Below are positions 1,588 to 23,345 of a DNA stretch of 23,467 nt, one piece after another; positions within the stretch are counted from its first letter, which is position 1; every line of letters begins with the position of its first letter. Origin of the DNA: Kofleriaceae bacterium (GTDB taxonomy: Bacteria > Myxococcota_A > Polyangia > Haliangiales > Haliangiaceae); NCBI GenBank assembly GCA_046597055.1, contig JBKJLC010000043.1, positions 1 to 23,467 of the forward strand, in the 5' to 3' direction. Both the position numbers and the translations under genes were made by a program. The notes under the pieces were generated by a model that saw only the letters and a program-made list of their open reading frames with translations, ran no database searches and had not been told where the DNA came from.

Positions 1588-2778
1588 GTGCAGGCCAACG
1601 AGCTGCTGGATGTCTTCTTTCGCTGGGCCCACCTGATCGCCGGGATCATGTGGATCGGCAACTCGATGCTCTTCAACTGGCTCGATCGCAACCTGATCGC
1701 GCCGCCCCCGGGCGCTGCCCACCGCCTCTCGCAGGGCAAGATCTACATGGTCCACTCCGGGGCCTTCTACGAGGTGGAGAAGAAGCTGCTCGAGCCCGGC
1801 CAGCTGCCCCAGGAGCTGCACTGGTTCAAGTGGCAGAACTTCCTGACCTGGCTCACCGGCATCTCGCTGCTGGTGATCGTCTACTACCTGAACGACGCGG
1901 CGTTCCTGATCGACCCGTCGGTCAAGGCGATGTCGCAGGGCGAGGCGATCGCCTGGTCGGTCAGCACGCTGGTCATGGGCTGGGTGGTCTACGACCTGAT
2001 CTGGATGACGCTCGGCAAGCGGACGCCGGCGATCGGGACGCTGCTCTCGTTCGTGCTGCTGTTCGGCGCCGCCTACGGGTTCACGCTGCTGTTCAGCGGC
2101 CGCGCGGCGTACATCCAGACCGGCGTCCTGATGGGGACCGTGATGACCGGCAACGTGTGGCTGCGCATCCTGCCGTCGCAGAAGGAGCTCATCGCGTCGA
2201 CGAAGTCGGGCCAGGAGCAGGACCCCACCCTCTCGGTCCGCGCCAAGCAGCGCTCGATCCACAACAACTACCTGACCTTCCCGTTGCTGTTCATCATGAT
2301 CAGCAACCACTTCGCGAGCACCTACAGTCACCACCTCAACTGGCTGGTGCTGATCGTGATCATGGTCGGCGGCGCCGGCGTCCGTCACTTCATGAACGTG
2401 CGCTACGCGGGCAAGGCGTGGCTGATGCCGGCGTTCGTGATGGCCGCGCTCGGCCTGGGCGGCATGGTGACGCTCACCCGCGTGCGTGAGGCGCCGGCGG
2501 TGACGGTCACCGGCCAGGTCACGTTCGCGCGCGCGCAGGAGATCATCATCGCGCGGTGCGCGTCGTGCCACAGCGCGCGACCGACCGACCCGACCTTCCC
2601 GATCGCGCCCGGCAACATCGTGTTCGACACCTCCGACCGCATCAAGGCGATGGCGGCCCGCATCAAGGATCGCGCCGTGGTGAACCAGACGATGCCGTTC
2701 CTCAACCGCACCGAGATGACCGAGACCGAGCGCGCCGAGCTGGGCGCCTGGATCGATCAGGGAGCCAGGCTCCAGTGA
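1588..2778 (+). CDS. puuD: Membrane urate hydroxylase with C-terminal cytochrome c (PuuD family)
   Basis: Family motifs RWAHLIAGIMWIGNS, VHSGAFY, LHWFKW, SGRAAYIQTG, RSIHNNYLTFP and MISNHF; multiple TM segments; haem motif CASCH; purine catabolism context. Start moved to GTG 1588. Confidence 0.92.
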   Translation: MQANELLDVFFRWAHLIAGIMWIGNSMLFNWLDRNLIAPPPGAAHRLSQGKIYMVHSGAFYEVEKKLLEPGQLPQELHWFKWQNFLTWLTGISLLVIVYYLNDAAFLIDPSVKAMSQGEAIAWSVSTLVMGWVVYDLIWMTLGKRTPAIGTLLSFVLLFGAAYGFTLLFSGRAAYIQTGVLMGTVMTGNVWLRILPSQKELIASTKSGQEQDPTLSVRAKQRSIHNNYLTFPLLFIMISNHFASTYSHHLNWLVLIVIMVGGAGVRHFMNVRYAGKAWLMPAFVMAALGLGGMVTLTRVREAPAVTVTGQVTFARAQEIIIARCASCHSARPTDPTFPIAPGNIVFDTSDRIKAMAARIKDRAVVNQTMPFLNRTEMTETERAELGAWIDQGARLQ

Positions 2779-4136: not shown

Positions 4137-4145
4137 GGAGCGCCT

Positions 4146-5648: not shown

Positions 5649-5977
5649 TCACGACCCACGTCCTCGACACCGCCGAGGGCCGCCCGGCCCGCGACGTCCC
5701 GATCCGGCTCGACCGGCACGACGGCGACGAGTGGCGCGAGGTCGGCGCCGGCGCCACCGACCTCGACGGCCGCCTGCGCACGCTGACCCCCGAGGGCCCG
5801 GTCGCGCCCGGCCGGTACCGCCTCGCCTTCGACACTGCCGCCTACTTCGCGGCCCGCGACGTCGACGGCTTCTTCCCGGTGGTCGAGATCCAGTTCACGA
5901 TCGTCGACGGCACCGCGCACTACCACGTCCCGCTGCTGCTCAGCCCGTTCGGCTACTCGACGTACCGCGGCAGCTGA
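5645..5977 (+). CDS. uraH: 5-hydroxyisourate hydrolase (transthyretin-like)
   Basis: MITTHVLDTAEGRPA, TDLDGR, FFP, HYHVPLLLSPFGYSTYRGS with the C-terminal YRGS signature. ATGA overlap with the previous stop. Confidence 0.96.
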   Translation: MITTHVLDTAEGRPARDVPIRLDRHDGDEWREVGAGATDLDGRLRTLTPEGPVAPGRYRLAFDTAAYFAARDVDGFFPVVEIQFTIVDGTAHYHVPLLLSPFGYSTYRGS

Positions 5978-6457: not shown

Positions 6458-6678
6458 TGGGGCGGTCGCCGCGCGCGAGCGCCCACTGCAACCGGCCGGG
6501 TGCGGTCAGCTGACGCCAGCCGGCAATTGGTTCGGCTTCCAAACCATGCGGCGGACCACGGGTGGCTGCTCGGGGGCATCGCTGCAACCGGTTGTCCGCG
6601 GCAACTCCCCCGGTCGCGCGGGTGGCGACCCGACGCGCCGATGCCGGGCGCGCGCACGTCATCGTGCGGAGTTGCGGC

Positions 6679-6694
6679 TGGCCACGACGTTGCA
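6679..6694 (+). promoter_or_regulatory. Sigma54-type -24/-12 promoter
   Basis: TGGCCACGACGTTGCA has exact GG-N10-GC spacing with TTGCA. ATG 6707 is 13 nt after the GC. Confidence 0.7.
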
Positions 6695-6706
6695 TTGCGG
6701 CGAGGC

Positions 6707-8365
6707 ATGCGTAGCCATCTCCTGATCGCCTCCTTGCTGCTCGCCGCGTGCGACGGGCCGTCCGACGATCCCGCGGTCGGCCCGCCCTGCGCCGGCAAGT
6801 GCGACGCCGCCGGGGTCGGTGACGTCGATGGCGACGGCACCTCGCTGTGCGTCGCGCTCCGCGGCAACGGCCCGCGCATCACGGCGCACTTCGGCGCGAT
6901 CGCGCGCGTTCTCGAGCACCACGGCCTGATCGACGGCGTCGCCGGCGGCAGCTCCGGCTCGATCACCGCCTTCCTCCTCGAGAGCGTCGAGTTGAACCCG
7001 GCGGTGTACGCGTGCGACGGCGGCTCGTGCACGAACCGCCAGGCCGGGGAGCGCGCGGCGTTCCTGATCAAGTCGCTGCGCGGCTACGTCGAGGTCCTGG
7101 CCGAGACCGACGAGGCGCTGGCGTTCGCGGCGGTCGGCCAGCTCGCCGCCGCGATCAGCGCCCGTGACGTCGAGGGCCTGCTCGCGCGCGACCCCGACGC
7201 GGCGGTCGCGGCGCTGCAGACGATCCTCGCCTCGCCGGAGCTGCGCGCCCTGGTGAACCCCGAGCTCGCCGAGGTCCTGCGCGCGTCGCCGAACCCGGCG
7301 TTCCACGCGCGCGACCTGGTCGACAGCGTGCGCGGCGGGTTGGCCTTCACGGCGACCGACCCGACGATGTTCGTGCGACCGGGCGTGGTCGCGTTCCCGG
7401 GCTTCGTCGCGCTGCTCGGGCAGCTCGGCACCTTCTACGCCGGCGGCGGGCCGGCGGATGCCGCGGCGCTCGGCCGCCTGCTCGACGCCTGCGCGCCGGC
7501 CGCGCGTGGCCTGCCGTGGACCGAGGCGAGGGCGGTCGGGTACGACGGCGGGACCTGCGGCGCGCGCTTCGGCGAGCTGCTCGCGCGCTGGCGGGTCGCG
7601 GTCCGCGCCGAGCCGGACCGGTTCAGGTCCCGGCTCGACGACCGGGTCGGCGCCGCGTTGCCCGCGCTGGTCACCACCGGCGTGCTCGAGGGTGACGCGG
7701 TCGCGGCGTGGCAGCGGGCCCGCGCCGACTACCTCGCGGCCCGGCCGGTCGCGCTCGACGTCCGCTTCGACGACGTCGGCGTGGGCTACTTCGGCGATCC
7801 GGCCGACCTCGAGCGGGTGATGCGCGCCGGCCAGCGCCGGACCGACGCGAAGGCGCGCAAGCGCCGCGACCTGGGCGCCGTGACCTGGCGGGAGGCGCTG
7901 GCGACCTCGCCGGCCGAGCCGGGGCTGTCGCGCGGGGTCGAGCTGGCCGACGGGCGGGTGTCGGTCGGTGGCTGGAGCGATCTGCAGCCGGTCCTCGTGC
8001 TCGAGGATCTCGGCTGCGACCAGACCATCTTCATCACCCGCGAGGGCGGTGCGGGCAGCTTCGAGACCGGCATCGCGCGCATGCTCGGCCTCGGTGACGC
8101 GGAGGCGCAGGCGCTGTTCGCCCTCGACGACCCGGCGTCGAGCTACTACCAGGCGATCGACGCCGCCGGTGGCGTCTGGTGCAGCGACTGGGACGCGCCG
8201 GCGGTGCAGGACCTCGACCTGATGACGTCGGTCGGGTACGACGCGCCGTTCGAGACGGCCGAGCCGTTCTTCACCGACGCGGTCACGCCCGCGCCCAACC
8301 TGGTCGCGCGGACCGGCGTGCCCGGCTGCACGCTCGGGGTCGCCGAGCCCGGTGCGCCCGAATAG
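6707..8365 (+). CDS. Secreted lipoprotein with a divergent patatin-like domain
   Basis: Lipobox MRSHLLIASLLLAAC and a GKCD motif. ALRGNG sits at the Gly-rich loop position, GGSSG is the GxSxG elbow (6944-6958), and SVGGWSD sits where DGG is expected. Confidence 0.65.
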   Translation: MRSHLLIASLLLAACDGPSDDPAVGPPCAGKCDAAGVGDVDGDGTSLCVALRGNGPRITAHFGAIARVLEHHGLIDGVAGGSSGSITAFLLESVELNPAVYACDGGSCTNRQAGERAAFLIKSLRGYVEVLAETDEALAFAAVGQLAAAISARDVEGLLARDPDAAVAALQTILASPELRALVNPELAEVLRASPNPAFHARDLVDSVRGGLAFTATDPTMFVRPGVVAFPGFVALLGQLGTFYAGGGPADAAALGRLLDACAPAARGLPWTEARAVGYDGGTCGARFGELLARWRVAVRAEPDRFRSRLDDRVGAALPALVTTGVLEGDAVAAWQRARADYLAARPVALDVRFDDVGVGYFGDPADLERVMRAGQRRTDAKARKRRDLGAVTWREALATSPAEPGLSRGVELADGRVSVGGWSDLQPVLVLEDLGCDQTIFITREGGAGSFETGIARMLGLGDAEAQALFALDDPASSYYQAIDAAGGVWCSDWDAPAVQDLDLMTSVGYDAPFETAEPFFTDAVTPAPNLVARTGVPGCTLGVAEPGAPE

Positions 8366-8444: not shown

Positions 8445-9395
8445 ATGAGGGCACCCTGGATCACGCTGTTGTTCACGATCCCCCTCGTTGCGTGTGGTCC
8501 GTCGGCGGGCGGAGCCGACGACGACGACGACGACGATGACGGCAGCGGCGGCATCGACGCACCGACCCAGACCGGCGATCCCGGCGACGGCGGCGTCTGC
8601 ACGGACGTGGTCGATCTGGTGTTCGTCCTCGACACCTCGAGCTCGATGGACTTCGTGCTGTCCCAGCTCGAGGGCCAGATCGCCGGCGTCGTCACCGCGG
8701 CCAACCAGCTCGCACCCGACGCCCATTTCGGGCTGATCGCCTTCCAGGACAACCATCGGCTCGACGCGACCGGCCCGCTCGAGGGCGGCCGCGTCCATAC
8801 CCAGGCCGCGACCCTGCAGGCGGCGTTCGCCCACTACCGCACCGTCTACACGGGCAACAACCGCAACCCGGGCGACGGCCCGGGCGGTCCGACCACGCAG
8901 AACCCGATCTGCGAGGAGAACTCGCTCGACGCGCTGTACGCCGCCGCCAGCGAGTTCCCGTGGCGGCCCAACGCGACCCGCGTCGTGATCGTCGCGACCG
9001 ACGACACGTTCCTCGAGGCGTCCGACAACTACGGCGATCGCGACCACGACGGCGACACCTCGTCGACCGATTACCCGAGCGAGGGCAACTACCCGGCGCG
9101 CCACACCCTCGCCGAGACGGTCACCGCGCTGCAGGCCGGCCGCATGCGCGTGTTCGCGTTCAGCCGCGTGCGCGAGCCCGGCTTCTTCGACCGGTGCGGC
9201 ACGCCCCGGCGCTTCCCCTGGGCCGACCTCAGCGACGGCTGGAGCACGCCGTACCTCGGCGCACCGCCGATCCCGGCCGCGACCGACGCGCTGCAGTTCG
9301 ACCTCGACCAGGTGCGCTCCGGCGCGCTCTCGCTGTCGGCGACGATCAACGGCGTCGTGCTCGACTCGTACTGCTCGCCGCCCGTCATCGACTGA
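8445..9395 (+). CDS. von Willebrand factor A (VWA) domain lipoprotein
   Basis: Lipobox LVAC; Asp8 linker; DLVFVLDTSSSM (MIDAS DxSxS); FGLIAFQD; EENSLDAL; FPWRPNATRVVIVATDD. Confidence 0.85.
   Translation: MRAPWITLLFTIPLVACGPSAGGADDDDDDDDGSGGIDAPTQTGDPGDGGVCTDVVDLVFVLDTSSSMDFVLSQLEGQIAGVVTAANQLAPDAHFGLIAFQDNHRLDATGPLEGGRVHTQAATLQAAFAHYRTVYTGNNRNPGDGPGGPTTQNPICEENSLDALYAAASEFPWRPNATRVVIVATDDTFLEASDNYGDRDHDGDTSSTDYPSEGNYPARHTLAETVTALQAGRMRVFAFSRVREPGFFDRCGTPRRFPWADLSDGWSTPYLGAPPIPAATDALQFDLDQVRSGALSLSATINGVVLDSYCSPPVID
8517..8540 (+). repeat. (GAC)n trinucleotide run encoding Asp8
   Basis: (GAC)6-GAT-GAC just after the lipoprotein Cys. Confidence 0.85.
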
Positions 9396-10582: not shown

Positions 10583-11200
10583 TCAGGTGTGCGCCGTCGG
10601 GACCGGCGCGTCGACGACCAGGACCACCCCGAGATCCTGGCGCAACTTGCGCAGGGCGGCGGCGAGGCGGGACTTCACCGTGCCAACGGGGATCCCGAGG
10701 TGCGCAGCCATCTGCGAACATGACAGGCCGTCGAAGTAGCTCAGCTCGAGGACCTGCCGTTGCGGGGGCGACAGCAGCGCGACCGCGGCGCGCACGTGCT
10801 GTCGGTCGGCCTGGTCGCCCGGCTCGGGCCCCGCGCACGCGCGCCCGACCAGCCCGCCTTCGTCGTCGCACCGGAGCCGAACTCGGGCCGACCTCAGCAC
10901 GTCGATCGCGCGCGAACGCGTCCGGACCACGAGCCAGGTGAGCACGCGGCCGCGCCGATGATCGAAGTCCGGCGCGTGACGCCACACCTCGACGAAGACA
11001 TCATGGAGCACGTCTTCGGCCTCACGCCGGTCGCGGAGCATCCGGATCCCGAGGCCCAGCAACAGCGGCGCGTATCGATCGTAGAGGCGACCGAGCGCCC
11101 CGCGGTCGCCATGCGCGATGGCCAGGACCCACGCGGCGGCGGCGGCGTTGTCGGCTTCCATGGCGGCCGCGTCCAAACGCGGTCCTGTGGCCCCCCTCAT
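10583..11200 (-). CDS. ECF RNA polymerase sigma factor (SigK-like)
   Basis: Region 2: GDRGALGRLYDRY..AEDVLHDVFVEVWR..WLVVRTRSRAID. Region 4: LSPPQRQVLELSYFDGLS..LGIPVGTVKSRL. Confidence 0.93.
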   Translation of the reverse strand: MRGATGPRLDAAAMEADNAAAAAWVLAIAHGDRGALGRLYDRYAPLLLGLGIRMLRDRREAEDVLHDVFVEVWRHAPDFDHRRGRVLTWLVVRTRSRAIDVLRSARVRLRCDDEGGLVGRACAGPEPGDQADRQHVRAAVALLSPPQRQVLELSYFDGLSCSQMAAHLGIPVGTVKSRLAAALRKLRQDLGVVLVVDAPVPTAHT

Positions 11201-11385: not shown

Positions 11386-12120
11386 ATGCGGCCCCCTCCT
11401 CGCGCGCGCCCGTCGTCGCCGAAGCGACCCCGGCCCGCCGCAAAGGCGGCCCCCGCGGTACCGCGCCGGCCCTACGGCGGCAAGGCTCCCGAGCAACGCC
11501 GGCTCGATCGGCGCGCCCGGCTGATCGCGTCCGCGCTCGATCTGTTCGGCACCCAGGGCTACGCCCGCACCAACCTGACCGCGCTCTGCGCGCACGCCGG
11601 CGTCTCGACGCGTGACTTCTACACCGAGTTCACGTCGCGCGAGACCCTGATGGCCGCGCTCTACGAGCACCTGGTCGCCAACGTCCTCGGCCACGTGGTG
11701 CGCGGGCTCGGCGAGGCGCCGCCTGGCCCACGCGCCCGCGTCGTCCACGGCCTGCGCGCGTTCATCCGCGCCTACCTCGTCGATCCACGGGTCGCCCGCG
11801 TGCTGTGCCTCGAGATGGTCGGCGCCAGCCCCGAGCTCGAGCAGCTGCGACGGCGCGGCATGCGCAGCTTCGCCGCGCTGATCGAGACGCAGGCCTACGA
11901 GCTGTTGCAGGGCGACGTCCCCCGCGATGCCCTCCGGCTGTCAGCGCTCGCGCTGGCGGGCGCGACCAACGAGCTGATCGTCGAGTGGCTGACCAATCCC
12001 GCGCCGCCGCCGGTGGTCATGCTGGAGGACAACCTCGCGCTCATCTTCCTCGCGCTCCTCGATGCCTCGCCGCGTGCGCAAGCGCTCCTCCACGAGCTCG
12101 GCGCCAAACCGCGCGCCTGA
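11386..12120 (+). CDS. TetR/AcrR family transcriptional regulator
   Basis: RPYGGKAPEQRR..LIASALDLFGTQGYARTNLTALCAHAGVSTRDFYTEF (HTH). Start moved to ATG 11386, 6 nt after TATCCT (11374-11379). Confidence 0.92.
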   Translation: MRPPPRARPSSPKRPRPAAKAAPAVPRRPYGGKAPEQRRLDRRARLIASALDLFGTQGYARTNLTALCAHAGVSTRDFYTEFTSRETLMAALYEHLVANVLGHVVRGLGEAPPGPRARVVHGLRAFIRAYLVDPRVARVLCLEMVGASPELEQLRRRGMRSFAALIETQAYELLQGDVPRDALRLSALALAGATNELIVEWLTNPAPPPVVMLEDNLALIFLALLDASPRAQALLHELGAKPRA

Positions 12121-12467: not shown

Positions 12468-12517
12468 GCGATATCTGAAAATCAGCCTTGTCAGATTTCC
12501 AGATATCGCTGTAGGGT
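12468..12517 (+). promoter_or_regulatory. Palindromic operator overlapping a sigma70-type promoter
   Basis: GCGATATCTGAAAATC (12468-12483) and GATTTCCAGATATCGC (12494-12509) are inverted repeats at 15/16. TTGTCA (12488-12493) lies in the spacer and TAGGGT (12512-12517) 18 nt downstream. SD GGAGG at 12532-12536. Confidence 0.8.
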
Positions 12518-12540
12518 CACCTCGAACCCTGGAGGTGCCC

Positions 12541-13629
12541 ATGTCGGCTGTCCCTTTCATGCCGCGCGCCGCGCTCGTCGCCGCGGTCGCCACCGCTCTC
12601 GCCCTGACCGGATGCGATGACCCCGAAGCCGGGGAGGCGCGACGCTGTGCGTCGGCGTCGGGCTACGCCGGCGACGACAGCTGCCTCGAGCCACCGGCGC
12701 CCGGGACCGGCTTCCAGCTCCACTACGGCCCGGCCAGCCTCGACGATCCCGACGAGGTCGCCCGCTATCTGCTCGCCCCCGGCGAGGAGCGCACCGACTG
12801 CGTGTTCCTGAAGACGCCCAACGACGAGGAGATCTTCATCGCTGGCTACCGCGGTCGCATGCGCCCCGGCTCGCACCACATGATCACGTACGTCCAGGAC
12901 CACGACACGCCCGACAGCGAAGGTCCCGAGCCGTGCGCGCAGGGCGCGGACAGCACGTTCCTGCTCGGGTCGCAGGAGCCGGCGATCGATCTCACCGTCG
13001 ACCAGGCCGCACCCGAGGAGCTCGGCGACGCGATGCGCCTCGGCGCACGCCGCCAGGTCGCGATCCAGCTGCACTACCTGAACGGCACCGACGCGCCGAT
13101 GCTGCGCGAGGCCTGGATCAACGTGCTCTACGCCGAGCCGGCCCAGGTGACCCGCGAGGTGTCGTCGCTGTTCTGGCTCGGTGGGCTCGGCATGAAGGTG
13201 CTGCCCGGCGTGCGCGAGACCATCCGCGCGCAGTGCGAGGTCCCCGCCGACGCGCCCCCCGATCTGGCGCTGCTCCGCATCACGGGGCACTTCCACGCCC
13301 ACACGCTCCGGCAGAGCGTGTGGAAGCTCTCGGGCGCGACCCGGACCCGCGTCTACGAGGGCTACGACTACAACCACCCCGGCTGGCTGGCGTTCAACAG
13401 CACGGCCGACAACCCGGCGCCCGACCCGGCCCGCCAGACCGCCGGGAGCGACCACGACGGCCCGCTGCCGCTCGCCCCGGGCGATCGGCTCGAGTGGGAG
13501 TGCGACGTCCACAACACCACCGGCGCACCGCTCGAGTTCGCCGACGGCGTCTTCACCGCCGAGATGTGCAACGTCTTCGGCACCTACGCGCCGAGCATGG
13601 GCGGCGCGTGGCGCTGCCTCAACTTCTGA
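12541..13629 (+). CDS. Copper type II (PHM/DBH-like) monooxygenase family lipoprotein
   Basis: CuH ligands in GSHHM and QLHYLN; CuM ligands in GHFHAH and EMC; lipobox ALALTGC. ATG 12541 follows the SD (12559 is an alternative start). Confidence 0.85.
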   Translation: MSAVPFMPRAALVAAVATALALTGCDDPEAGEARRCASASGYAGDDSCLEPPAPGTGFQLHYGPASLDDPDEVARYLLAPGEERTDCVFLKTPNDEEIFIAGYRGRMRPGSHHMITYVQDHDTPDSEGPEPCAQGADSTFLLGSQEPAIDLTVDQAAPEELGDAMRLGARRQVAIQLHYLNGTDAPMLREAWINVLYAEPAQVTREVSSLFWLGGLGMKVLPGVRETIRAQCEVPADAPPDLALLRITGHFHAHTLRQSVWKLSGATRTRVYEGYDYNHPGWLAFNSTADNPAPDPARQTAGSDHDGPLPLAPGDRLEWECDVHNTTGAPLEFADGVFTAEMCNVFGTYAPSMGGAWRCLNF

Positions 13630-13645
13630 GCCCCGGAGCGCTCCC

Positions 13646-15184
13646 ATGTCGCTCTTCGAATGGTTCCGCCGCCGCAAGAAGTCGGCGCCCGAGCTGCCGA
13701 CCGAGCCGCCGATCTGGCTCAACGCCCGGTCGAACGGCGAGTACTTCCACGAGCCGACCACCCGCGAGCGCCGGCTGCGCGAGCTGGTCATCGAGCAGGC
13801 GGCCGCGCCGGCCCGCCGCCTCGGCCTCGACCGCCGGGAGCTGCTCGCCTCCAGCATGGGCATGGCGCTCACGCTCGGGCTCGCGAACCGGCTGGCCGGC
13901 TGCGACGCCGGCGGCCACTACCACGTCCCCTCGCTCGACGAGTGCGTCGCGCGGGGCGGGCGCGCGCTGTCAGGCGGCGGCGAGTTCATCTTCGACGTCC
14001 AGACCCATCACTTCGATCCCGCCGGCGACTGGCGCGCGACCAACCCGGTCTACGCGAGCTTCCTCGCCACGCTCGGCACCTGCGGGGCGAACGATCCCAT
14101 CGACTGCTTCCGGCGCGAGCGCTACGCGGAGCTGCTCTTCGTCGACAGCGACACCACGGTGGCGGTGCTGTCGAGCTTTCCGGCCGCGCTGTGCGACGAC
14201 CGGCGCCGGGCCGGGTGCGGGCTGCCGCTCGACAACCCCGGCATGGCCGGGACCCGCGACTGGCTCAACGAGCTCACCCACTCGGAGCGGCTCGTCAACC
14301 ACTGTCAGGTGATGCCCAACCTCGATCTCGCCGAGCAGCTCGCGATGATGGACGAGATGGCCGCGAGCTACGGGGTCGGCGGCTGGAAGTGCTACCCCGC
14401 GTTCGGTCCGGACCAGGTCGGCTTCTGGCTCGACGACCCGATCGGTCGGGCCTTCATCGAGCGCGGCCTCGCGCTCGGCGTCGACGTGTTCTGCGTGCAC
14501 AAGGGCCTGCCCATCCCCGGGTTCGACCTGGCCCACAACTATCCGACCGAGATCGGCCGGGTCGCGCGCGCGTACCCCGAGGCCAAGATCGTCGTCTACC
14601 ACTCGGCGATCTGCGCCGGCCAGGACCTCACGTGCAGCCCGATGGAGGGACCGTACGATCCGGCCAGCGCGACCCAGGGCATCGACACGCTCCTGCGCTC
14701 GCTCGATGACGCCGGCATCGGACCCGGCCAGAACGTCTACGCCGAGCTGGGCAGCTGCTGGAACCAGGTCATGCACGACCCCACGCAGGCGGCGCACGTG
14801 CTCGGCAAGCTGCTGCTCCGCGTCGGCGAGGACAACGTGCTGTGGGGCACCGACGCGATCCTCAACGGCTCGCCCCAGCCGCAGATCGAAGCGCTGCGCG
14901 CCTTCGAGATCGATCCGGTCTTCCAGGATCGCCACGGCTACCCGGCGCTGACCCCGGCGCGCAAGGCCAAGATCTTCGGCCTCAACGCCGCGCGGCTCTA
15001 CCGGATCGATCCGGCTCGGCAGCGCTGCGTCGTCGAGCGCGACGTGTTCGCCGATGCCCGGCGCGCGCTGGACGACGAGCTCGGTCCCCGGCGCTGGGCG
15101 GTGCAGCGCCCGCTCGGTCCGATCTCGCGGCGCGAGTTCGTCGCCCACGCGCGCGCGCAGCGCGCGAGCGGACGGCCGGCATGA
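13646..15184 (+). CDS. Amidohydrolase superfamily (Amidohydro_2-type) metalloenzyme
   Basis: FIFDVQTHH, GWKCYP, CVHKG, VYHSA, WGTDAI..GSPQPQIEALRAF and KAKIFGLNAARLY. Confidence 0.88.
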   Translation: MSLFEWFRRRKKSAPELPTEPPIWLNARSNGEYFHEPTTRERRLRELVIEQAAAPARRLGLDRRELLASSMGMALTLGLANRLAGCDAGGHYHVPSLDECVARGGRALSGGGEFIFDVQTHHFDPAGDWRATNPVYASFLATLGTCGANDPIDCFRRERYAELLFVDSDTTVAVLSSFPAALCDDRRRAGCGLPLDNPGMAGTRDWLNELTHSERLVNHCQVMPNLDLAEQLAMMDEMAASYGVGGWKCYPAFGPDQVGFWLDDPIGRAFIERGLALGVDVFCVHKGLPIPGFDLAHNYPTEIGRVARAYPEAKIVVYHSAICAGQDLTCSPMEGPYDPASATQGIDTLLRSLDDAGIGPGQNVYAELGSCWNQVMHDPTQAAHVLGKLLLRVGEDNVLWGTDAILNGSPQPQIEALRAFEIDPVFQDRHGYPALTPARKAKIFGLNAARLYRIDPARQRCVVERDVFADARRALDDELGPRRWAVQRPLGPISRREFVAHARAQRASGRPA

Positions 15185-16593
15185 GCCCGAGGTCGCGGCC
15201 GGGCGTGGCCGGAGCGCTGCTGCTCGCGGTCGCCGCCTGCGGTGGCGAGGAACCGCCGGCGCCGTTCCCCCCCGGCGCGTGGTGGCCCGCGTACGGCCGC
15301 GACCTCGACAACTCGCGGGCCAACCCCGACGAGGTCGAGCTGACGCCCGAGACGGTCGGCGGCCTGGTGCCGGTGTGGCGATACGCCGGCCCCGGCGTCA
15401 CGTCGACGCCGGTGGTGGTCGACGGCCAGGTCTTCATCGGGACCTGGCGCGGCCGCCTGGTCGTGCTCGACGCCGTCACCGGGGCGGTCGTGCGCGAGCT
15501 GGCCCTGCCCGGCGCCGGCACGGTCGACGCCACCCCGTGCGTCACCGCCGACCACATCTACGTCGGAGACGGCACCGGCACGTTGCACGCGATCGACCGC
15601 GCCACCGGTGCGGTGCGCTGGTCGACCCCGCTGGATCCGGGAACCCCGACCGCGCACCTCTACGGCTCGCCGGTGTACCTCGCCGACGCCGGCCTGGTGG
15701 TCAGCGGGGTCGCCTCGATCGAGCTGACCCTCGACGGCGTCACCGACTACCACTTCCGCGGCAGCATCGTCGCGGTGGATGCGGCGACCGGCGCCCCGCG
15801 CTGGCGCCGCTACCTGACCGCCGACGACGCCACCGCGGGCGCCGGCGTCTCGGTGTGGTCGACCGCCGCGGTCGACCCCGCGCGCCGGCTGCTGTTCATC
15901 GGCACCGGCCAGAGCTACGAGGCGCCGGCGAGCTCGCTCGGCGACGCGCTGGTCGCGATCCGGTACGACACCGGCGAGCTGGCCTGGCACCGGCAGTTCA
16001 CCGCCGACGACGTGTTCACGTTCTTCGGCGGGATCGAGGGCCCCGACTTCGACGTCGGCGCGGCGCCCAACCTGTTCACGGTCGGAGGCCGCGACGTGGT
16101 CGGCGTCGCCGACAAGGCCGGCGTCTACTCGACGCTCGATCGCGACACCGGCGAGATCATCTGGGCCCGCCAGCTCACGGTGGGCAGTCACCTCGGCGGC
16201 GTGATGGTCACCGCCGCGGTCCACGGCGGCTCGATCTACGTGGTCTCCAACCGGTGGGCCACGTACGACGACTTCGGCGACCCGCGCAACACCTCGGTCG
16301 CGTTCGGCCTCGACGCCGCCACCGGCGTCGCGCGCTGGCAGACCCCGCTCGCGGCGCCCAGCTTCGGCGCCGTGTCGTGGGCGGGCGGCGTCGTGTACGT
16401 CGGCACCATCGACGGCACCTTCCATGCGCTCGCCGGGTCCGACGGACGGTCGCTCTGGCACGACCCGTCGCTGCAGCCGATCGGCGGCGGCGCGACGATC
16501 GCCGCCGGCCGACTGCTGGTCCCACACGGATTCGTGTTCCTGGGCGCGCCCGGCGAGGCCGAGGGCGGCGTCACCGCCTACGGCCTGCCGTAG
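15181..16593 (+). CDS. PQQ-binding-like beta-propeller lipoprotein (polyvinyl-alcohol-dehydrogenase-like family)
   Basis: ATGA overlap; lipobox AVAAC; WPAYGRDLDNSR; repeated AxDxxTGxxxW docking motifs; SVWSTAAVD..FIGTGQSY..DALVA..WHRQ..DDVF..GPDFDVGAAP. No CxxCH. Confidence 0.85.
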   Translation: MSPRSRPGVAGALLLAVAACGGEEPPAPFPPGAWWPAYGRDLDNSRANPDEVELTPETVGGLVPVWRYAGPGVTSTPVVVDGQVFIGTWRGRLVVLDAVTGAVVRELALPGAGTVDATPCVTADHIYVGDGTGTLHAIDRATGAVRWSTPLDPGTPTAHLYGSPVYLADAGLVVSGVASIELTLDGVTDYHFRGSIVAVDAATGAPRWRRYLTADDATAGAGVSVWSTAAVDPARRLLFIGTGQSYEAPASSLGDALVAIRYDTGELAWHRQFTADDVFTFFGGIEGPDFDVGAAPNLFTVGGRDVVGVADKAGVYSTLDRDTGEIIWARQLTVGSHLGGVMVTAAVHGGSIYVVSNRWATYDDFGDPRNTSVAFGLDAATGVARWQTPLAAPSFGAVSWAGGVVYVGTIDGTFHALAGSDGRSLWHDPSLQPIGGGATIAAGRLLVPHGFVFLGAPGEAEGGVTAYGLP

Positions 16594-16633
16594 GCCGCAC
16601 CCCGACACTCTCACCATCACGAGGAGACGCAGC

Positions 16634-17032
16634 ATGCGCAAGCGCGAGACGATTGGATACCTCATGTTCACCATCGCCTTCGGCCTGGTCGCCGGTTGTG
16701 GCGGCGACGGCGGCGACGGCGGCGACGCGGACCCGACGGCCGACCCGGCGGTGCGGCAGTGCATCGCGGCCTCGCCCGAGGTCTCGGCGTGCGTGGAGTG
16801 CGCGTGCACCTCGTGCCTCGTCGAGATCAAGGCGTGCGACGACACCGCGGGCTGCGCGGCGATCCGCGCGTGCGGCGCGCGCAGCGGCTGCTCGGGCGCC
16901 GACTGCTACGGCGAGAACACCTGCCGCGAGGTCATCGATGCCAACGGCGGGCCGTTCGGGATCGGCGCCAGCACCGCGCTCACCGTGGGGCAGTGCGCCG
17001 ACGGCGCCGGCTGCCCGTGCAGCGCGTCATGA
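16634..17032 (+). CDS. Small Cys-rich lipoprotein (132 aa, 15 Cys)
   Basis: SD GAGGAG at 16621-16626; lipobox LVAGC; core CVECACTSCLVEIKACDDTAGC..C. Confidence 0.85.
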   Translation: MRKRETIGYLMFTIAFGLVAGCGGDGGDGGDADPTADPAVRQCIAASPEVSACVECACTSCLVEIKACDDTAGCAAIRACGARSGCSGADCYGENTCREVIDANGGPFGIGASTALTVGQCADGAGCPCSAS

Positions 17033-17892
17033 GCGCGCGGTGGCTCGCAGCCGCCGCGGGCGCCGTGCTGGCGTGCAGCGCGGCCAGGGCCCCCGGGGTC
17101 GACGACTCGCCGGCGGTCGATGCGCGCAGCAGCGGCGACGGCGGCGCGGCCTCGTCGTGCCCCCACCGCGGCCCACCGGTGATCGATCCCGCGTCGCGCC
17201 CCGCGTGCTGCCCGGGCGCGCACTGCTTGCCCGCGAGCGTGATCGATCCCGGGCTCACGGACGACCTCGCGCCTTGCGCCGCCGATCCGACCCAGCTGTG
17301 CGTACCCGACGATCTCATCGCCAGTGCGGGCGAGTTCGTGCCCGCCACCTGCGATTCCCTGCTCGGCGCCGAGGGTCGTTGCCTGTCGACCTGCCTGCCG
17401 CGCATCGCCGCCCAGACCGACGCCTTGCCCCGCAGCACCTGCGGCCCGAACGAGCTGTGCGCCCCCTGCTACGACCCGACCACCGGCGAGGACACCGGGG
17501 CCTGTCGGGTGTCCTGCGATCCGGGGCCGAGCCGGCCGCCGACGATGGCGGTGACCTGCTGCCACGACGACGGACACTGCGTTCCACCCGCGGCCGCCGG
17601 CGCCGACGCCGATCAGCTGGGCATGGACACCTGCCCGGCCGGCTTGCTGTGCGCGCCCGACGTGCTCGCGAGCCGGGACTACGTCGCGATGGCGTGCGAG
17701 ACCGTCGTGCTCGCGCTGATCTTTGGCGACGCGTACCGGCCGGGCGCGTGCATGCCCGACTGCTTGCCGGCGGTGAGCAACTTCCTGCTCGGGCAGGACG
17801 GCTGCGCGACCGGCTACAAGTGCGCGCCGTGCCTCGACCCGCTCAGCCAGCAGCCGTCCGGCGCCTGCGATTACCTGCCGCCGGCGCTGTGA
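17029..17892 (+). CDS. Cys-rich repeat lipoprotein (287 aa, 27 Cys)
   Basis: ATGA overlap; lipobox AVLAC; internal duplication with CAPCxDPxxxxxxGAC present twice. Confidence 0.85.
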   Translation: MSARWLAAAAGAVLACSAARAPGVDDSPAVDARSSGDGGAASSCPHRGPPVIDPASRPACCPGAHCLPASVIDPGLTDDLAPCAADPTQLCVPDDLIASAGEFVPATCDSLLGAEGRCLSTCLPRIAAQTDALPRSTCGPNELCAPCYDPTTGEDTGACRVSCDPGPSRPPTMAVTCCHDDGHCVPPAAAGADADQLGMDTCPAGLLCAPDVLASRDYVAMACETVVLALIFGDAYRPGACMPDCLPAVSNFLLGQDGCATGYKCAPCLDPLSQQPSGACDYLPPAL

Positions 17893-18093: not shown

Positions 18094-19044
18094 TTACGGC
18101 GCGCACGCGAGCTGCGCGAGGAAGGCGTCGCGGTCGTCGATGCTGAGCAGCAGCTGCGACGACGGCCGCGACCGGCCGAACAGGCCATGCACCTCGACGG
18201 GCGTGTGCAGCGTGAGCAACACGTTGGGGTCGGTGTACGAGAGATCGGTCGCACCGGTCACGGCGGACTCGATCGGCGCAGCGCTCGCGATGACCTCGCG
18301 CGGCACAGTCACGCGCCTCGTGACCCCGCGTTCGATCACGACCCCCACGGGGGTGAACCGCAGCGGCGCGAGACGGACCGCGTGGGCGGAGCCGATGAGC
18401 CAGAGGAGCCCATACGCGGATAACGCCGACAGGACGACCGCGAGGGTCGGTGCAAACCGAACGAGGATGACGTGCATCGCGACCGCTTCGACCAACGCGA
18501 GCACGGCGAGCACGCCGAAGAACATCAGGACCCCGGAGCGACGATGCATCGTGAACCCACCCGGCGCTGCCCGGAACCAGCCGGTCAACGCGAGGACGAG
18601 AATCGCGACCTCGGCGGCGAGCACGCTCGCGACGGCCGGCACCGGGATCGCCTCGCGAAATGCGCCGTCGAGGGCCGCCGGCAGGCCATGCCCCTGGTTC
18701 CGCCGCGCACGCACGTCGCGCAGCACGCGACGACCACGTACCAAGATCGAGCACACGATCGCCGCTTCGATCACGATCGCGACCACCCCGAGTGCGCGCA
18801 ACCCGACGAGCATCCGCGCAGCCGCGCAGCCGAGCACGAGCACGCGGACCAGCGCCGCTGGCCGCGCGTGACCGGGCCGGACCGCGAGCAGCCAGAACCA
18901 GGCCGCCGCGGTGAGCGTGAGGTCCGCCGCGACCGCGATGCCGAGCGATGGATACGCCGGCAGGAGCGTGAACGCGATCACGACCGCGCACGCGTAGACG
19001 GCAGCGATGGCGAGCAGCGCGGGCAGCAGCACGGGTCGGGTCAC
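18094..19044 (-). CDS. Hypothetical multi-pass membrane protein
   Basis: Several hydrophobic segments, an FTMHRRSG motif and a soluble beta-rich C-terminus (PNVLLTL..HGLFG..LLLSIDD). Start uncertain: GTG 19044 versus 19104 in the ORF track. Confidence 0.8.
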   Translation of the reverse strand: MTRPVLLPALLAIAAVYACAVVIAFTLLPAYPSLGIAVAADLTLTAAAWFWLLAVRPGHARPAALVRVLVLGCAAARMLVGLRALGVVAIVIEAAIVCSILVRGRRVLRDVRARRNQGHGLPAALDGAFREAIPVPAVASVLAAEVAILVLALTGWFRAAPGGFTMHRRSGVLMFFGVLAVLALVEAVAMHVILVRFAPTLAVVLSALSAYGLLWLIGSAHAVRLAPLRFTPVGVVIERGVTRRVTVPREVIASAAPIESAVTGATDLSYTDPNVLLTLHTPVEVHGLFGRSRPSSQLLLSIDDRDAFLAQLACAP

Positions 19045-19294
19045 TCGGCTTCGATGCGGCCCGCGTGGAGATCGCTTGATTGCCGCGGCCGCGCTGGCAG
19101 GCACCGGTGCCGGCCAACGCGGCGCTCCATGGCACTCGTGTCCACTGCTCGTTCGTGCGTCGTCCTGGTGGGTATCAGTCGCTCACTCGCTCGATCACGG
19201 CCTCTGGCTGGGGAGGGGCTGGGGCTCCCCATGGCAAGCTGCCCCGGTCATCCGGGGTGGCCCGCCGCTGCCATCCGGCCGACCGGGGAGTCTC

Positions 19295-20299
19295 ATGGAA
19301 CGCAAGCTCGTCTCGATCCAGCGCGTCGACAGCGTCGAACCGATCGTCGGCGCCGACAACATCGTGAAGGCCCGGGTGATGGGCTGGGACGTCGTGATCA
19401 AGAAGACCGAGCTCGCCCCGGGCGATCCGTGCGTGTTCTTCGAGATCGACAGCGTCCTGCCCGAGGGCCAGCCCTGGGCCGAGTTCATGCGACCGCGCGG
19501 CTTCCGCGTGAAGACCGCACGCCTGCGCGGCGTGCTCTCGCAGGGCCTGGCGATGCCGGTCGACATCTTGCCCGCGGGCGTCGCGCTGCCCGCGATCGGC
19601 ACCGACCTCGGCGATCTGCTCGGCGTCGTGAAGTTCGAGCCAGTGCTGCCCGACGCCCGCGAGGTGGCCGGCCCGTTTCCCGGCCAGGTGCCCAGGACCG
19701 ACGAGCTCCGCCTGCAGTCGGCGCTGGCCGTGCTCGACGAGCTGCGCGGCCGCGACTTCGTCGTGACCACCAAGCTCGACGGCACCTCGGCGACCTACTT
19801 CCGCCCGCTCGACGGTGAGCTGGTCGCGTGCTCGCGGAACTGGGCGCTCCGGCCGGGCCCCAACCCGGTGTGGCGGATGGCCGAGAAGTACCAGCTCGCG
19901 ACCACGCTGCCGCCCGGGGTCGCCATCCAGGGCGAGCTGTGCGGCCCCGGCATCCAGAAGAACCGACTCGGCCTGGCCGAGCTCGAGCTGTTCGTGTTCA
20001 GCGTCCACGACACCCGCGACGGCCGCTTCCTCGGCCACGACGAGACCGTGCGCTTCTGCGCGGCGCATGGGCTGACCCCGGTGCCGGTCGAGCTGCGGGT
20101 CGACGGTGACGATGCCGCGACCTTCGAGCACTCGCTGGCCGTCTACCTCAGGCTGGCCCAGGGCCTCTACCGGGGCACCCGCAGCCGCAAGGAGGGCATC
20201 GTGGTCCGCCCGCTGATCGAGGCGCAGTCGCCGACGCTGGGCGGTCGGCTGTCGTTCAAGGTGATCAACAACGACTTCTTGCTGAAGGACGAGGCCTGA
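19295..20299 (+). CDS. ATP-dependent RNA ligase, DRB0094/Rnl5 family
   Basis: N-terminal MERKLVSIQR..GADNI..VFFEIDS..LRGVLSQGL, then PRTDELRLQ. Nucleotidyltransferase motifs: KLDGTS (I), IQGELCG (III), LFVFSV (IIIa), KEGIVVR (IV), SFKVINNDFLLK (V). SD GGGGAG at 19285-19290. Confidence 0.93.
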   Translation: MERKLVSIQRVDSVEPIVGADNIVKARVMGWDVVIKKTELAPGDPCVFFEIDSVLPEGQPWAEFMRPRGFRVKTARLRGVLSQGLAMPVDILPAGVALPAIGTDLGDLLGVVKFEPVLPDAREVAGPFPGQVPRTDELRLQSALAVLDELRGRDFVVTTKLDGTSATYFRPLDGELVACSRNWALRPGPNPVWRMAEKYQLATTLPPGVAIQGELCGPGIQKNRLGLAELELFVFSVHDTRDGRFLGHDETVRFCAAHGLTPVPVELRVDGDDAATFEHSLAVYLRLAQGLYRGTRSRKEGIVVRPLIEAQSPTLGGRLSFKVINNDFLLKDEA

Positions 20300-20323
20300 C
20301 CGTCGTCTCCTTGCGGGGCGTCA

Positions 20324-21697
20324 TTACTCCTCGACGCGCTTGCGGTCGAGCCAGGCCTCGATGTCGCCCTCGAAGGCGGCGAAGGCGTCCGGGTTGTGGA
20401 TCTGCAGCTCCCGCCGCGCGCGCGCGATGGCGTCGTCGGCCTCGTCGCTGTCCCGACCGGCGGTGTCGAGCAACATGTTCATCGGGCTCGGTTCGTCGGC
20501 ATGGGTCGAGAACATCGCGCGCACGATCTTGCGCGCGTCCTTCGCGGTCGCGTCCACGGCCTGCCACTCGCCGAGCACCGCCACCAGCCCGCGCTCACCC
20601 TTGCCCTTCAGCTGGGCCTTGTCGGTCGACGCCCAGCTCGGGTTGTCGCGCTGCCGCGCACACAGGTAGTTGTGGGCTCGGGTGAGCAGCTGGTCGGCGG
20701 CGGCCGGCGTGCGGGCGCCATCGACCGGCGTGATGACCACGGCACTGTCGATCACCTCGACCCCGCTCATCGCGATGATGCTGTCCAGGATCGCATCGGC
20801 GTCTTCCAGCCGTTGCCCGGCAAGCCGGTCGAGCGCATGCGTGATCGCGACCCACGCAACCTTGTGCTGACCTTGCTTGGTCTCCTCGCCGTCCTGGTAG
20901 ACCGGCGGGCGTGCGGGCGTCGCGAGGAGCCACTTGATCTCGTAGTCGCCCACCTCGTCGGCTTCGACCCGACCGCGGTCCGGATGTTTGAGGGACAACT
21001 TCGCGAAGGGGGTGCTCAGCACGAGCTCCTGTCGGTACGGCGGATCGCCCTTGCGCTGCACCATCTGCGACACGGCCTGGCCGTCACCGGCGCGAACATC
21101 CAGCAGCGACTCCGCGCTGGCGCCAGCGACCACCCGATCGGCCACCGCGTCGGCATGCTGCTCGTACACATCCCCCGCCGCGCCGACGCCGCCCGCGAGC
21201 TGCACGCCGCCACGCTGCTGCACCACGTGCGCCGCCTCGTGGGCAGCGGTGTGCAGGTCCGGCGTGCCGCCGAACGCGACGGCGTTGCCGGTCGCGTAGG
21301 CCTGCGCGCCGATCGCGGCGTTGGCCTCGGCCGCCGCGCCGCCGGTGTACGCCTGCACGGTCCGGACGTCGTGCCGGCCGAAGCTGGTCTGGATCTGCTC
21401 GAGGAACGGCAGCGACGTGCCGCTACCGCTCACGCCGCGCGCCGCATGGACGGCTGGCTGCTCGCCGTCGAGCTCGCCGTCGAGCGCCTGGACCGGCCCG
21501 GTCGCAAACCAGAACGGGTCCGGGGTCGGCATTCCCGCCAGCGCCACATCTGCAATGGAGGACGACGGGGCGATCGCGTCCGGCGCCGTGACCGCCCGGC
21601 GCTGGATGGCGTCGGTGAGGGCCCGCTTGCCGGGTGCCGGACGGTCGACGCCGTGAGCTCCGTCCACGAACGAGGAAGACGCCCTGAAGTCGCGCAT
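20324..21697 (-). CDS. DUF4157 (eCIS core domain) protein with an uncharacterised C-terminal domain
   Basis: [55 protein letters not shown] (HExxH at 21227-21241); N-terminal PGKRALT; VQRK linker. Start ATG 21697 chosen from the promoter position. Confidence 0.88.
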
Positions 21698-21709
21698 GCC
21701 GGCAGCAAC

Positions 21710-21725
21710 AGCACGGGCCGGGCCA
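21710..21725 (-). promoter_or_regulatory. Sigma54-type -24/-12 promoter
   Basis: Minus-strand TGGCCCGGCCCGTGCT has GG-N10-GC spacing. The ATG is 13 nt after the GC, the same spacing as at 6679-6707. Confidence 0.55.
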
Positions 21726-21770
21726 GCGGGACCGCGTGGTGGGACGTGGACCTGGACACGACCCCGCCGG

Positions 21771-21808
21771 GTTGAACGGTCCATCAACGGCGCACTGGAC
21801 GGTTCAGC
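21771..21808. repeat. Imperfect inverted repeat (enhancer site or terminator)
   Basis: GTTGAACGGTCCA-N12-TGGACGGTTCAGC, between the GGDEF stop and the DUF4157 promoter. Confidence 0.6.
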
Positions 21809-21823
21809 GTGCGCGACCGGAGC

Positions 21824-23233
21824 TCACGGCCGAGGACTGGCGAGCGCCGGGCCGCGCGCGTGGACGACGACCTGATTCTTGCCGGCGCGCTTGGCCCGGT
21901 ACATCGCCGCGTCAGCGAACGCGACCAGCTCGGCCGGGGTCTCGCTGTCGCCGGGGAACACGCTGACCCCGACGCTGACCGACAGCGCGACCTCCGTGCC
22001 GGCGACGGCGTAGGTCTGGTTCAGCGCGACCAGCAGCCGACGCGCCACCACCTGGACGTCGGCGGCGGACCGGAGCTCCTCGAGCACGACGGTGAACTCG
22101 TCGCCGCCCAGGCGGGCCGCGGTGTCGACCGAGCGCAGCGACCCCTCGATCCGACGGGCGGCCTCCGCGAGCACGCGATCGCCCGCCTCGTGCCCGAGCG
22201 TGTCGTTCACCGCTTTGAAGCCGTCGAGGTCGAGGAACAGGATGCCCACGGTGCCGGTGGCCCGCCGCGCGCGCGCCAGCGCCTGGCGCAGGCGGTCCTC
22301 GAACAGCATCCGGTTGGGCAGCCCGGTCAGGGTGTCGAAGTGAGCCAGCTGGAAGACGACCTTGTCGACCCGCTGACGCTCCACCTCGCTGCGGTCGAGC
22401 GCGCGGGCGGTGGTCCAGGTCAGGATCATCGCGGTGATCACCATCGCGCCGATCGTGTAGGCCACGCCGAACGCGGGGCCGTACAGCCCGGCCAGCTCCC
22501 CCTGGAGTCGGAGCCAGCCCAGCAACGGCGGCGCGACCACCAGCAGCGGCATCATCCCACGCATGACCCGGCCGCCCGGACTCCGGCTGGTGAGCGCGGC
22601 CATCAAGCCGGTGGCCGGCATGGCGCACAGCACCGCCGCCGCCATGGCCAGGAACAGCAGCGCGGTGTGCAGCGCCATCGGGATGAACGTCGCCACGCGA
22701 ACCAGCGCGGCGGCGCTGTACGCGTAGCCCAGGAGGGTCACGAACGACGTCAGCGCCACGACCAGCGTCAGCACGTGCGCGAGCCGCGGCCGACCGAGCA
22801 TCAAGCTGCCGACCGCCGCCCCGATCACCGCGAAGTTGATCGCCGTGTTGGGCGCCATCCGGTTGGGCTGCCCCCCGAGGTCCAGCCGCGACGCGAACAG
22901 CCACCGGTCGATCGACATCTCCTGGCCAAGCAGGTAGCCGGCCAGCCGGATCAACCCGAAGCCGCCGACCACCAGCGCCAGGCCGAGCGGGATCCAGCGG
23001 CGCGGCCCGGCGCCCCCCTCGGCGCGCATCAGCAGGGCGGCGCCCAGCGCGATGAAGCCGAGCGCGGTGACCGGGTTCATCGCGACCAGGCCGGGGACGA
23101 TCGACGTCAGGGTCTGACTCCCGATCTGCCAGCCGATCAGCACGGCCGCCCCGACCACCACCGCCGCCCCGGCACAGGCGACCCCCGCCCTGCGCGCGAC
23201 CTTGACGAACGTCGGGTCGGAGAAGTCGCCCAC
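21824..23233 (-). CDS. Membrane-bound diguanylate cyclase (GGDEF)
   Basis: Multi-TM N-terminus (MNPVTA, RMAPNTA, MALHTA); DTLTGLPNR; FLDLDGFKAVNDTLGHEAGD; RSVD I-site; RLGGDEF; ADAAMYRAK. Start GTG 23233 (or ATG 23242). Confidence 0.93.
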   Translation of the reverse strand: MGDFSDPTFVKVARRAGVACAGAAVVVGAAVLIGWQIGSQTLTSIVPGLVAMNPVTALGFIALGAALLMRAEGGAGPRRWIPLGLALVVGGFGLIRLAGYLLGQEMSIDRWLFASRLDLGGQPNRMAPNTAINFAVIGAAVGSLMLGRPRLAHVLTLVVALTSFVTLLGYAYSAAALVRVATFIPMALHTALLFLAMAAAVLCAMPATGLMAALTSRSPGGRVMRGMMPLLVVAPPLLGWLRLQGELAGLYGPAFGVAYTIGAMVITAMILTWTTARALDRSEVERQRVDKVVFQLAHFDTLTGLPNRMLFEDRLRQALARARRATGTVGILFLDLDGFKAVNDTLGHEAGDRVLAEAARRIEGSLRSVDTAARLGGDEFTVVLEELRSAADVQVVARRLLVALNQTYAVAGTEVALSVSVGVSVFPGDSETPAELVAFADAAMYRAKRAGKNQVVVHARGPALASPRP

Positions 23234-23345
23234 GGCCGGCATCGTATCCCAGAACGAGCGCTCCCCCGGTGAACGCATGGGCTCCCTCCCAATCCGGCCG
23301 CAACCGCGCGGGTCGCCCACGCAGCGCGGGCCAGGCCGGGTTCGG

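Follow-up and report, generated by a model that had tools for sequence, protein, structure and literature searches.

The contig JBKJLC010000043.1 of a Kofleriaceae bacterium, analysed at its full length of 23,467 bases (the window, which is the complete contig; host genome G000, 8.4 Mb, 94% complete), carries a TetR-family regulator followed by five co-oriented genes (genes 1–5). These encode a predicted PHM/DBH-fold copper protein, an amidohydrolase-2 barrel, a pyrroloquinoline quinone (PQQ)-type β-propeller and two cysteine-rich lipoproteins. A first-pass annotation, made from the DNA letters, had named the three enzyme families, and all three calls (PHM/DBH fold with its ligands, amidohydrolase-2 and PQQ-type propeller) are borne out. 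The locus represents a module whose parts combine variably rather than a machine with five set components; the complete set is patchy in distribution and probably mobile. We tentatively read it as an inducible, exported oxidise-then-cleave pathway, a little short of an even chance, in which copper-dependent hydroxylation would be joined by propeller oxidation, with electrons likely recycled, and by amidohydrolase cleavage.

Gene 1 is modelled as a PHM/DBH-fold copper protein

The model of gene 1 (pLDDT 91.8) matches rat PHM (E 2e-12) and human DBH (E 8e-11) in Foldseek at TM 0.55–0.66, and these matches score far above unrelated folds. An alignment of 86 relatives places the CuH ligands at H112, H113 and H178 and the CuM ligands at H250, H252 and M342; H178, H252 and M342 are invariant, and H112, H113 and H250 are retained in at least 90% of rows. 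A gene-1 profile weakly matches PHM and DBH, its HxH and EMC motifs aligning with those of PHM. Judged by the model, gene 1 genuinely adopts the PHM/DBH fold, a two-domain jelly-roll with all six ligands, from which we infer a copper- and O2-dependent hydroxylase. Searched alone, gene 1 has no match in Pfam, NCBIfam or a single-sequence PDB search; PF03712 (Cu2_monoox) matches several of its relatives, though not gene 1 itself.

The profile alignment puts Thr248 at the position of PHM Arg240 and Phe346 at that of Tyr318. We assume here the PHM numbering of both residues, and that Arg240 is the one that binds the peptidylglycine carboxylate. Because of these two replacements, peptidylglycine is an unlikely substrate of gene 1, as read from sequence.

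PHM-like genes are numerous, with 7 matches in the host and 13, 7, 5 and 46 in four other Myxococcota genomes (46 in G793, 8.8 Mb). Five other host copies lack neighbours of the gene 2–5 types, and the copies fetched mostly stand alone. A class-wide search with the gene-1 profile scored just four candidates per genome and so undercounts (4 against 46 in G793).

Gene 2 combines an amidohydrolase-2 barrel with an unusual N terminus

Gene 2 matches PF04909 above the Pfam cut-off, and an AlphaFold model covers all 512 residues (mean pLDDT 93, pTM 0.93). Its structural neighbours—decarboxylases, hydratases and hydrolases—reach Z scores of 18–22 (maximum 21.8) over ~270 residues at 11–18% identity. 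On this modelling, gene 2 is an uncharacterised amidohydrolase-2 TIM barrel. Single-sequence PDB and profile searches returned nothing useful, and a solved or named close relative was not found. D117/Q119/H121, K248, H285 and H319 are conserved across 127 rows; D403 is invariant in 25 close rows and falls below 90% in the 127.

The lipobox-like LAGC lies at residues 83–86, behind a conserved 60-residue N-terminal segment (S29-N30-G31-E32; P22, S29 and E32 invariant) and the motif D62-R63-R64-E-L-L. The segment is modelled at pLDDT 72–98, which suggests that it packs on the barrel. Because LAGC lies so late and the preceding segment is modelled confidently, gene 2 appears to lack a standard lipoprotein signal. 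An RR motif is present in 111 of 119 relatives (median offset 61) and is followed by a Cys box in 93 of these; a long-signal lipoprotein of the twin-arginine translocation (Tat) type is possible. A second RR-like motif, P.[ST]RREF, lies near the C terminus in 87 of the 119, the first falling at about residue 62 (DRREFL). The SNGE segment and the twin-arginine motifs at both ends (13646–13903 and 15120–15184) may form an intramolecular chaperone, a cap or an uncleaved anchor. Export of gene 2 fits with its conserved Cys pairs (146/154 and 183/191).

The gene-2 family is large (5347 of 8000 candidates). At E 1e-100 it is found in 34 of 401 genomes of the class and 5 of 61 near relatives; among 16 other genomes of the genus this amidohydrolase is present in one only, as a 45% relative. 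A Sphingobium member of the family sits amid β-oxidation genes. Relatives from Sphingobium were discarded as a guide to what the enzyme acts on: the sole paper found (PMC11026547), in the part available, deals with another gene.

Gene 3 is a likely quinoprotein

Gene 3 matches the Pfam families PQQ and PQQ_2 above their cut-offs and aligns with the haem-propeller encoded on the Sphingopyxis 113P3 plasmid (29% identity, E 7e-30). It is likely a PQQ-type quinoprotein in the broad sense, from a group like the poly(vinyl alcohol) (PVA) dehydrogenases. Shared with the 113P3 protein are Glu, Trp, Asn/Gln, Asp and Lys positions, which we take to be the PQQ/Ca site; the corresponding motifs in gene 3 are SIEL, VWS, GTGQSY (Gln for Asn, with Asn in several relatives), GPDFD and DKAG. 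Assignment to the methanol/ethanol dehydrogenase family (TIGR03075) was rejected, the score being 92.8 bits against a cut-off of 480 and a vicinal Cys pair being absent. There are weak matches to the 'acido-empty-quinoprotein' model TIGR04528 and to tetrathionate hydrolase. Close relatives occur in 17 of the 401 class genomes. Three gene-3 relatives carry a cytochrome-like tail and others adjoin cytochrome-like domains; the host genome has two PSCyt1 matches elsewhere.

Genes 4 and 5 are probably disulfide-rich lipoproteins

Beyond the anchor residue, gene 4 has 14 Cys and gene 5 has 26. Both are likely disulfide-rich lipoproteins, and disulfides fit better than metal carriage because the counts are even. 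Cytochromes were considered and rejected, with CxxCH absent from gene 5 and nine relatives, and gene 4 lacking His; so was peptide amidation of the two products, neither of which ends in Gly. Pfam holds no family for either gene, ESM Atlas gave just unnamed Myxococcota clusters under 0.9, and an NCBIfam scan left genes 1, 2, 4 and 5 without a family.

The two genes differ in their associations. Relatives of gene 4 stand directly upstream of an amidohydrolase at three loci (L065, L072 and L166). Searching 66 chosen genomes gave three strong gene-4 matches, all amidohydrolase-linked, but all three belong to the query alignment; the 17 weaker matches were not amidohydrolase-linked where checked. 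Members of the gene-5 family, which is widespread, were found in 49 of the order's 147 genomes; most are longer and have no linked partners, and gene 5 itself has the look of a recent arrival from that family.

Export signals, promoter and regulator

The five open reading frames lie on the forward strand exactly as first described: two junctions are gaps, of 16 and 40 nt, and the other two are ATGA overlaps (Table 1). GGAG-type ribosome-binding sites precede genes 1 and 4. Short hydrophobic N termini are closed by LTGC in gene 1 (C25), VAAC in gene 3 (C20), VAGC in gene 4 (C22) and VLAC in gene 5 (C16). The lipobox Cys is retained in at least 90% of 86 relatives for gene 1 and in 89% of 120 family rows for gene 5. 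The earlier description of the operon as all-lipoprotein thus holds as likely for genes 1, 3, 4 and 5, with their short signals and lipobox Cys, and fails for gene 2, whose LAGC comes so late. In a crude scan of the host genome, with the locus itself outside the count, lipobox-like motifs mark 565 of 5953 called genes (9.5%), in runs of three at most. We infer that all five proteins are exported and that the genes share a single transcript.

The TetR gene, left out of the first-pass annotation, belongs to the unit and is likely its repressor. It lies upstream of gene 1 and co-oriented with it in both the host and G044, at the same position and with ~81% DNA identity. An independent run (X6) has TetR on one contig with genes 1 and 2, and a divergent TetR precedes the related cluster at L009. 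Between TetR and gene 1 lies an inverted repeat (12468–12509) with 16-nt arms that are 94% complementary; it is one of only 6 among 96 comparable repeats in the 8.4-Mb genome with arms of 50% G+C or less. The likely −35 hexamer (TTGTCA, 12488–12493) falls inside the palindrome and the likely −10 (TAGGGT, 12512–12517) follows at a spacing of 18. We read this as a promoter because G044 has the matching TTGCCG-17-TAGCGT. The core GAAAAT..TTG.C..ATTTCC is retained in G044, with the TANNNT hexamer 17 nt on (18 nt in the host).

A scan for consensus sigma-70 promoters found no site, but the palindrome and the −35/−10 pattern are kept in G044. Run X6 has 107 other letters in place of the stretch between TetR and gene 1. 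The operator half-site, allowing two mismatches, has six other matches in the genome, none palindromic by eye. A terminator scan gave a sole terminator-like site, inside gene 2 and at chance level. Separately, a 47-nt A+T-rich inverted repeat occurs in three copies in the host genome (contigs C155, C191 and C251), possibly a mobile element end or a shared terminator.

Table 1 Coordinates of the TetR-linked unit within the window
Feature	Position	Strand	Basis and remarks
TetR-family regulator	11386..12120	+	Pfam TetR_N; probable start at ATG 11386, by comparison with G044
Inverted repeat (likely operator) with likely −35/−10	12468..12517	+	Repeat scan; core and spacing kept in G044
Gene 1, PHM/DBH-fold, two-copper monooxygenase-like probable lipoprotein, 362 aa	12541..13629	+	Model and ligands; ribosome-binding site GGAGG at 12531–12535
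Gene 2, predicted amidohydrolase-2 TIM barrel, 512 aa	13646..15184	+	Pfam PF04909 and model; SNGE segment, twin-arginine-like motif at 13829–13846, Cys86
Gene 3, likely PQQ-type β-propeller lipoprotein, PVA-dehydrogenase-like group, 470 aa	15181..16593	+	Pfam and alignment
Gene 4, small Cys-rich probable lipoprotein, 132 aa, 1 + 14 Cys, no His	16634..17032	+	Sequence; relatives directly upstream of amidohydrolase
Gene 5, Cys-rich repeat probable lipoprotein, 287 aa, 1 + 26 Cys	17029..17892	+	Shorter than most members (~420 aa) of its family, which is common in myxobacteria

Related loci reveal a loose module

The full five-gene set was found in just one other genome, G044, which belongs to another family of the same order. 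There, TetR and the five genes keep their order at ~80% DNA identity across two overlapping contigs. Contigs of X6, one of four runs and from an independent study, bridge TetR–gene 1–gene 2, gene 2–gene 3 and genes 3–4–5. Among public runs, the strongest matches to the locus are soil metagenomes from a single study.

Two further, distant loci hold the three enzymes. L009 has a PHM-like gene, an amidohydrolase and a propeller (26, 42 and 42% identity), and G195 (locus L126) has propeller, amidohydrolase and PHM-like genes; the same three families thus recur in differing order, and the two amidohydrolases fall on different branches of the tree. Smaller combinations are also seen. At L068 (1442–3253) and L138 (9976–11154), a redoxin–cytochrome c–PHM fusion lies directly upstream of an amidohydrolase, apparently a version of the PHM–amidohydrolase pairing with its electron chain built in. 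A propeller and a PHM-like gene adjoin divergently at L155, and L065 holds a PHM-like gene, a regulator, gene 4, an amidohydrolase and a PSCyt1 cytochrome. Cytochromes thus accompany the L065 version, and that at L166 as well.

We built a FastTree phylogeny of 46 barrels (43 of 125 amidohydrolase loci, counted after dropping 10 duplicates and self loci, plus three proteins), rooted at the midpoint. In the clade of gene 2 (support 0.98), all six members have a PHM-like and/or gene-4 partner, two of these partners by inference only. Adjacency of PHM-like genes to amidohydrolases appears on four further branches. The co-location check proposed with the first-pass annotation gives a mixed result: G044 holds all five genes with TetR and two more loci hold the three enzymes, but for every gene the majority of relatives lie apart from the other families.

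A tentative oxidise-then-cleave pathway and its rivals

In the pathway that we favour, TetR would likely repress the unit until an inducer is present. Gene 1 would hydroxylate a C–H bond of a probably hydrophobic compound at the cell surface (two electrons in). Oxidation of the resulting alcohol by the propeller would release two electrons, which would likely return to the copper, and the bond thus activated would be cleaved by the amidohydrolase. Scavenged PQQ, which many bacteria use, would serve as the cofactor of gene 3, and electrons would pass directly, via free quinone or via a cytochrome made elsewhere. That the substrate is hydrophobic is weakly suggested by lipid-type neighbours in related loci, namely a GMC oxidase in L065 and β-oxidation genes in L209. 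Upstream of the three enzymes in L009 (1459–6938) lie a P450, a TonB-dependent receptor and TetR, a hint of a lipid or sterol-like substrate.

Several results weigh against this pathway, some concerning electron transfer and others linkage. No cytochrome gene is present in the cluster, and in the alignment gene 3 has neither a CC pair nor a fused haem c domain (CxxCH). Neither pqqB nor pqqC was found in G000, G044 or G195, though the same search detects both in G793, and PqqE gave nothing over cut-off in the 94%-complete host genome; PQQ use by gene 3 is in doubt because pqqB and pqqC were not found in the host. In its favour, the mechanism first proposed, in which the dehydrogenase would reduce the copper enzyme or oxidise its product, is plausible and has a fungal precedent, alike in logic only: according to the part available of the source, an extracellular PQQ-dependent pyranose dehydrogenase (AA12/AA8) drives a copper lytic polysaccharide monooxygenase (LPMO), although a cytochrome domain is required there (PMC5960967). 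That pair differs in its unrelated mononuclear LPMO, in its propeller family and in the cytochrome domain, which is absent here.

As to linkage, any partner family lies within 5 kb at only 9 of the 125 amidohydrolase loci, and at 3 of the 46 with at least 4 kb on both sides. A PHM-like gene is found at 2 of these 46, within the rough 1–6% range expected by chance in genomes with 7–46 copies. Of 16 propeller loci fetched (G195 outside this count), 15 lack the other four families; all 12 close PHM-like loci fetched, 11 from one genome, lack an amidohydrolase or propeller, and none of 28 other gene-5 loci has a partner family in its 1.5-kb flanks. As assembled, moreover, G044 has a 1.5-kb deletion that joins gene 1, ending at residue 247, in frame with gene 2, resuming at residue 393. 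The fusion sits at a contig junction (L015 1–486 with L196 1–117, an exact 117-nt overlap) and represents either a deletion variant or a mis-assembly.

An explanation that we judge nearly as likely as the oxidise-then-cleave pathway, though still the less probable, is a co-regulated toolbox. Here the genes would share a repressor and inducer and act on related extracellular substrates, with general reductants and acceptors and neither electron coupling nor an ordered pathway. Each family is usually found alone, PHM-like genes number 5–46 matches per genome, order and membership vary, and about one host gene in ten has a lipobox-like motif, all of which suits a toolbox. Set against it are the direct adjacency of the three enzyme families in three lineages and two gene orders, overlaps of the translational-coupling type and the recurrence of TetR.

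The cofactor question leads to a second alternative, which we consider unlikely. In a PAM-like route, gene 1 would hydroxylate next to an amide nitrogen, a cofactor-free propeller would act as a metal-dependent lyase or hydrolase (in the role of PAL, or like tetrathionate hydrolase), and gene 2 would hydrolyse the freed amide, with reductant from a cytochrome or a small molecule. This would explain why pqqB and pqqC were not found in the host and why gene 3 lacks haem and vicinal Cys, and the weak TIGR04528 and tetrathionate hydrolase matches show that the propeller fold has cofactor-uncertain members. Yet gene 3 keeps the PQQ/Ca-site positions, bacterial use of scavenged PQQ is common, Thr248 and Phe346 replace the PHM residues, and a Pfam scan found no NHL/PAL family in the cluster.

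Least probable is a protein-modifying or antagonistic system, in which the enzymes would mature or protect the gene 4 and 5 lipoproteins as the working surface or vesicle product, for example in predation; gene-4 relatives immediately upstream of amidohydrolase (L065, L072 and L166), the 14 and 26 non-anchor Cys and the patchy, probably mobile distribution are in keeping with this, but neither protein has a C-terminal Gly, gene 5 often occurs where the enzymes do not, and genes 4 and 5 are not seen with the three-enzyme sets of L126 and of L009, the latter cut by a contig end.

The oxidise-then-cleave pathway also has a bolder form, which we regard as improbable. This would be a surface cascade free of ascorbate and haem, the quinoprotein returning both electrons to PHM-type hydroxylation (possibly across the disulfide-rich lipoproteins) for a net conversion of CH2 into C=O that needs only O2, before a new long-signal Tat amidohydrolase cleaves the product. 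If true, it would be the first defined bacterial pathway of the PHM/DBH type, a family with dozens of copies in myxobacteria.

Other genes of the window

The window opens with a lower-GC stretch holding a phage-integrase C-terminal fragment (106–789) and an open reading frame without assignment (834–1463). A purine catabolism cluster follows (1480–5977), with a Urate_ox_N protein and then, by our reading of the sequence, an allantoinase, an allantoicase fused to an OHCU-decarboxylase-like tail, and a hydroxyisourate hydrolase. A lipoprotein-like open reading frame of 621 aa on the forward strand (6500–8365) has a patatin-like GGSSGS motif and no Pfam match; a vWA lipoprotein comes after it (8445–9395). 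An extracytoplasmic function (ECF) sigma factor (10583–11200) is divergent from TetR. Downstream of the five genes, 19007–23320 encodes an OB-fold RNA ligase, an eCIS-core (DUF4157) protein with an unassigned C-terminal domain and a membrane GGDEF protein.

Comparison with known systems

To our knowledge, nearly all work on PHM/DBH-type copper enzymes concerns animals and algae, where ascorbate is the reductant. How electrons arrive at, and move between, the two coppers is still debated. Gene 1 shares with PHM and DBH the double jelly-roll, the HH..H and HxH..M ligands, the Gln before the third His and the EMCN motif. It differs in being a probable bacterial lipoprotein of 14–16% identity, in lacking a PAL or DOMON domain, in not keeping the Arg240 and Tyr318 positions, and in having candidate redox partners from neighbouring genes instead of ascorbate. 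Our literature search, with subscription journals mostly outside its coverage, found no characterised bacterial PHM/DBH pathway, nor the propeller group in Myxococcota. In the parts available, one paper still treats PHM as its clan's eukaryotic branch (PMC8812541) and another describes PAM as a comparison only (PMC12912966).

Gene 2 shares its fold and PF04909 with amidohydrolase-2 members that include the γ-resorcylate and ACMSD-type decarboxylases, LigJ, LigY, LigI and the uncharacterised BB4693. It departs from them in its first metal motif (Q-T-H), the invariant Lys248 and additional regions at both ends, 110 residues long at the N terminus and 50 at the C terminus, which carry twin-arginine-like motifs. 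The locus also flags a large amidohydrolase group (5347 matches) with an unusual conserved N terminus around a twin-arginine motif.

PVA breakdown uses a dehydrogenase–hydrolase logic. The haem-propeller of the Sphingopyxis 113P3 plasmid, which we take to be an enzyme of that pathway (its record names only a PQQ propeller), has a cytochrome c and a gene of hydrolase type beside it, and the oxidise-then-hydrolyse logic is alike. Relative to the 113P3 set, gene 3 is without the CC pair or a haem domain, the hydrolase is a predicted TIM barrel and a copper monooxygenase is added.

The cluster offers a small soluble bacterial PHM/DBH member, a likely repressor upstream, whose ligand ought to give a lead to the substrate, and linked genes for a candidate electron donor and a candidate downstream enzyme, making the questions of substrate and reductant testable. 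Myxobacterial genomes hold 5–46 PHM/DBH-like matches each, without assigned chemistry. The locus belongs neither to the fungal PQQ dehydrogenase–LPMO system nor to that of PVA degradation; what is new in it is the haem-free five-gene version, the conserved TetR–operator unit, the link between gene 4 and the amidohydrolase, and the counts that show a loose module.

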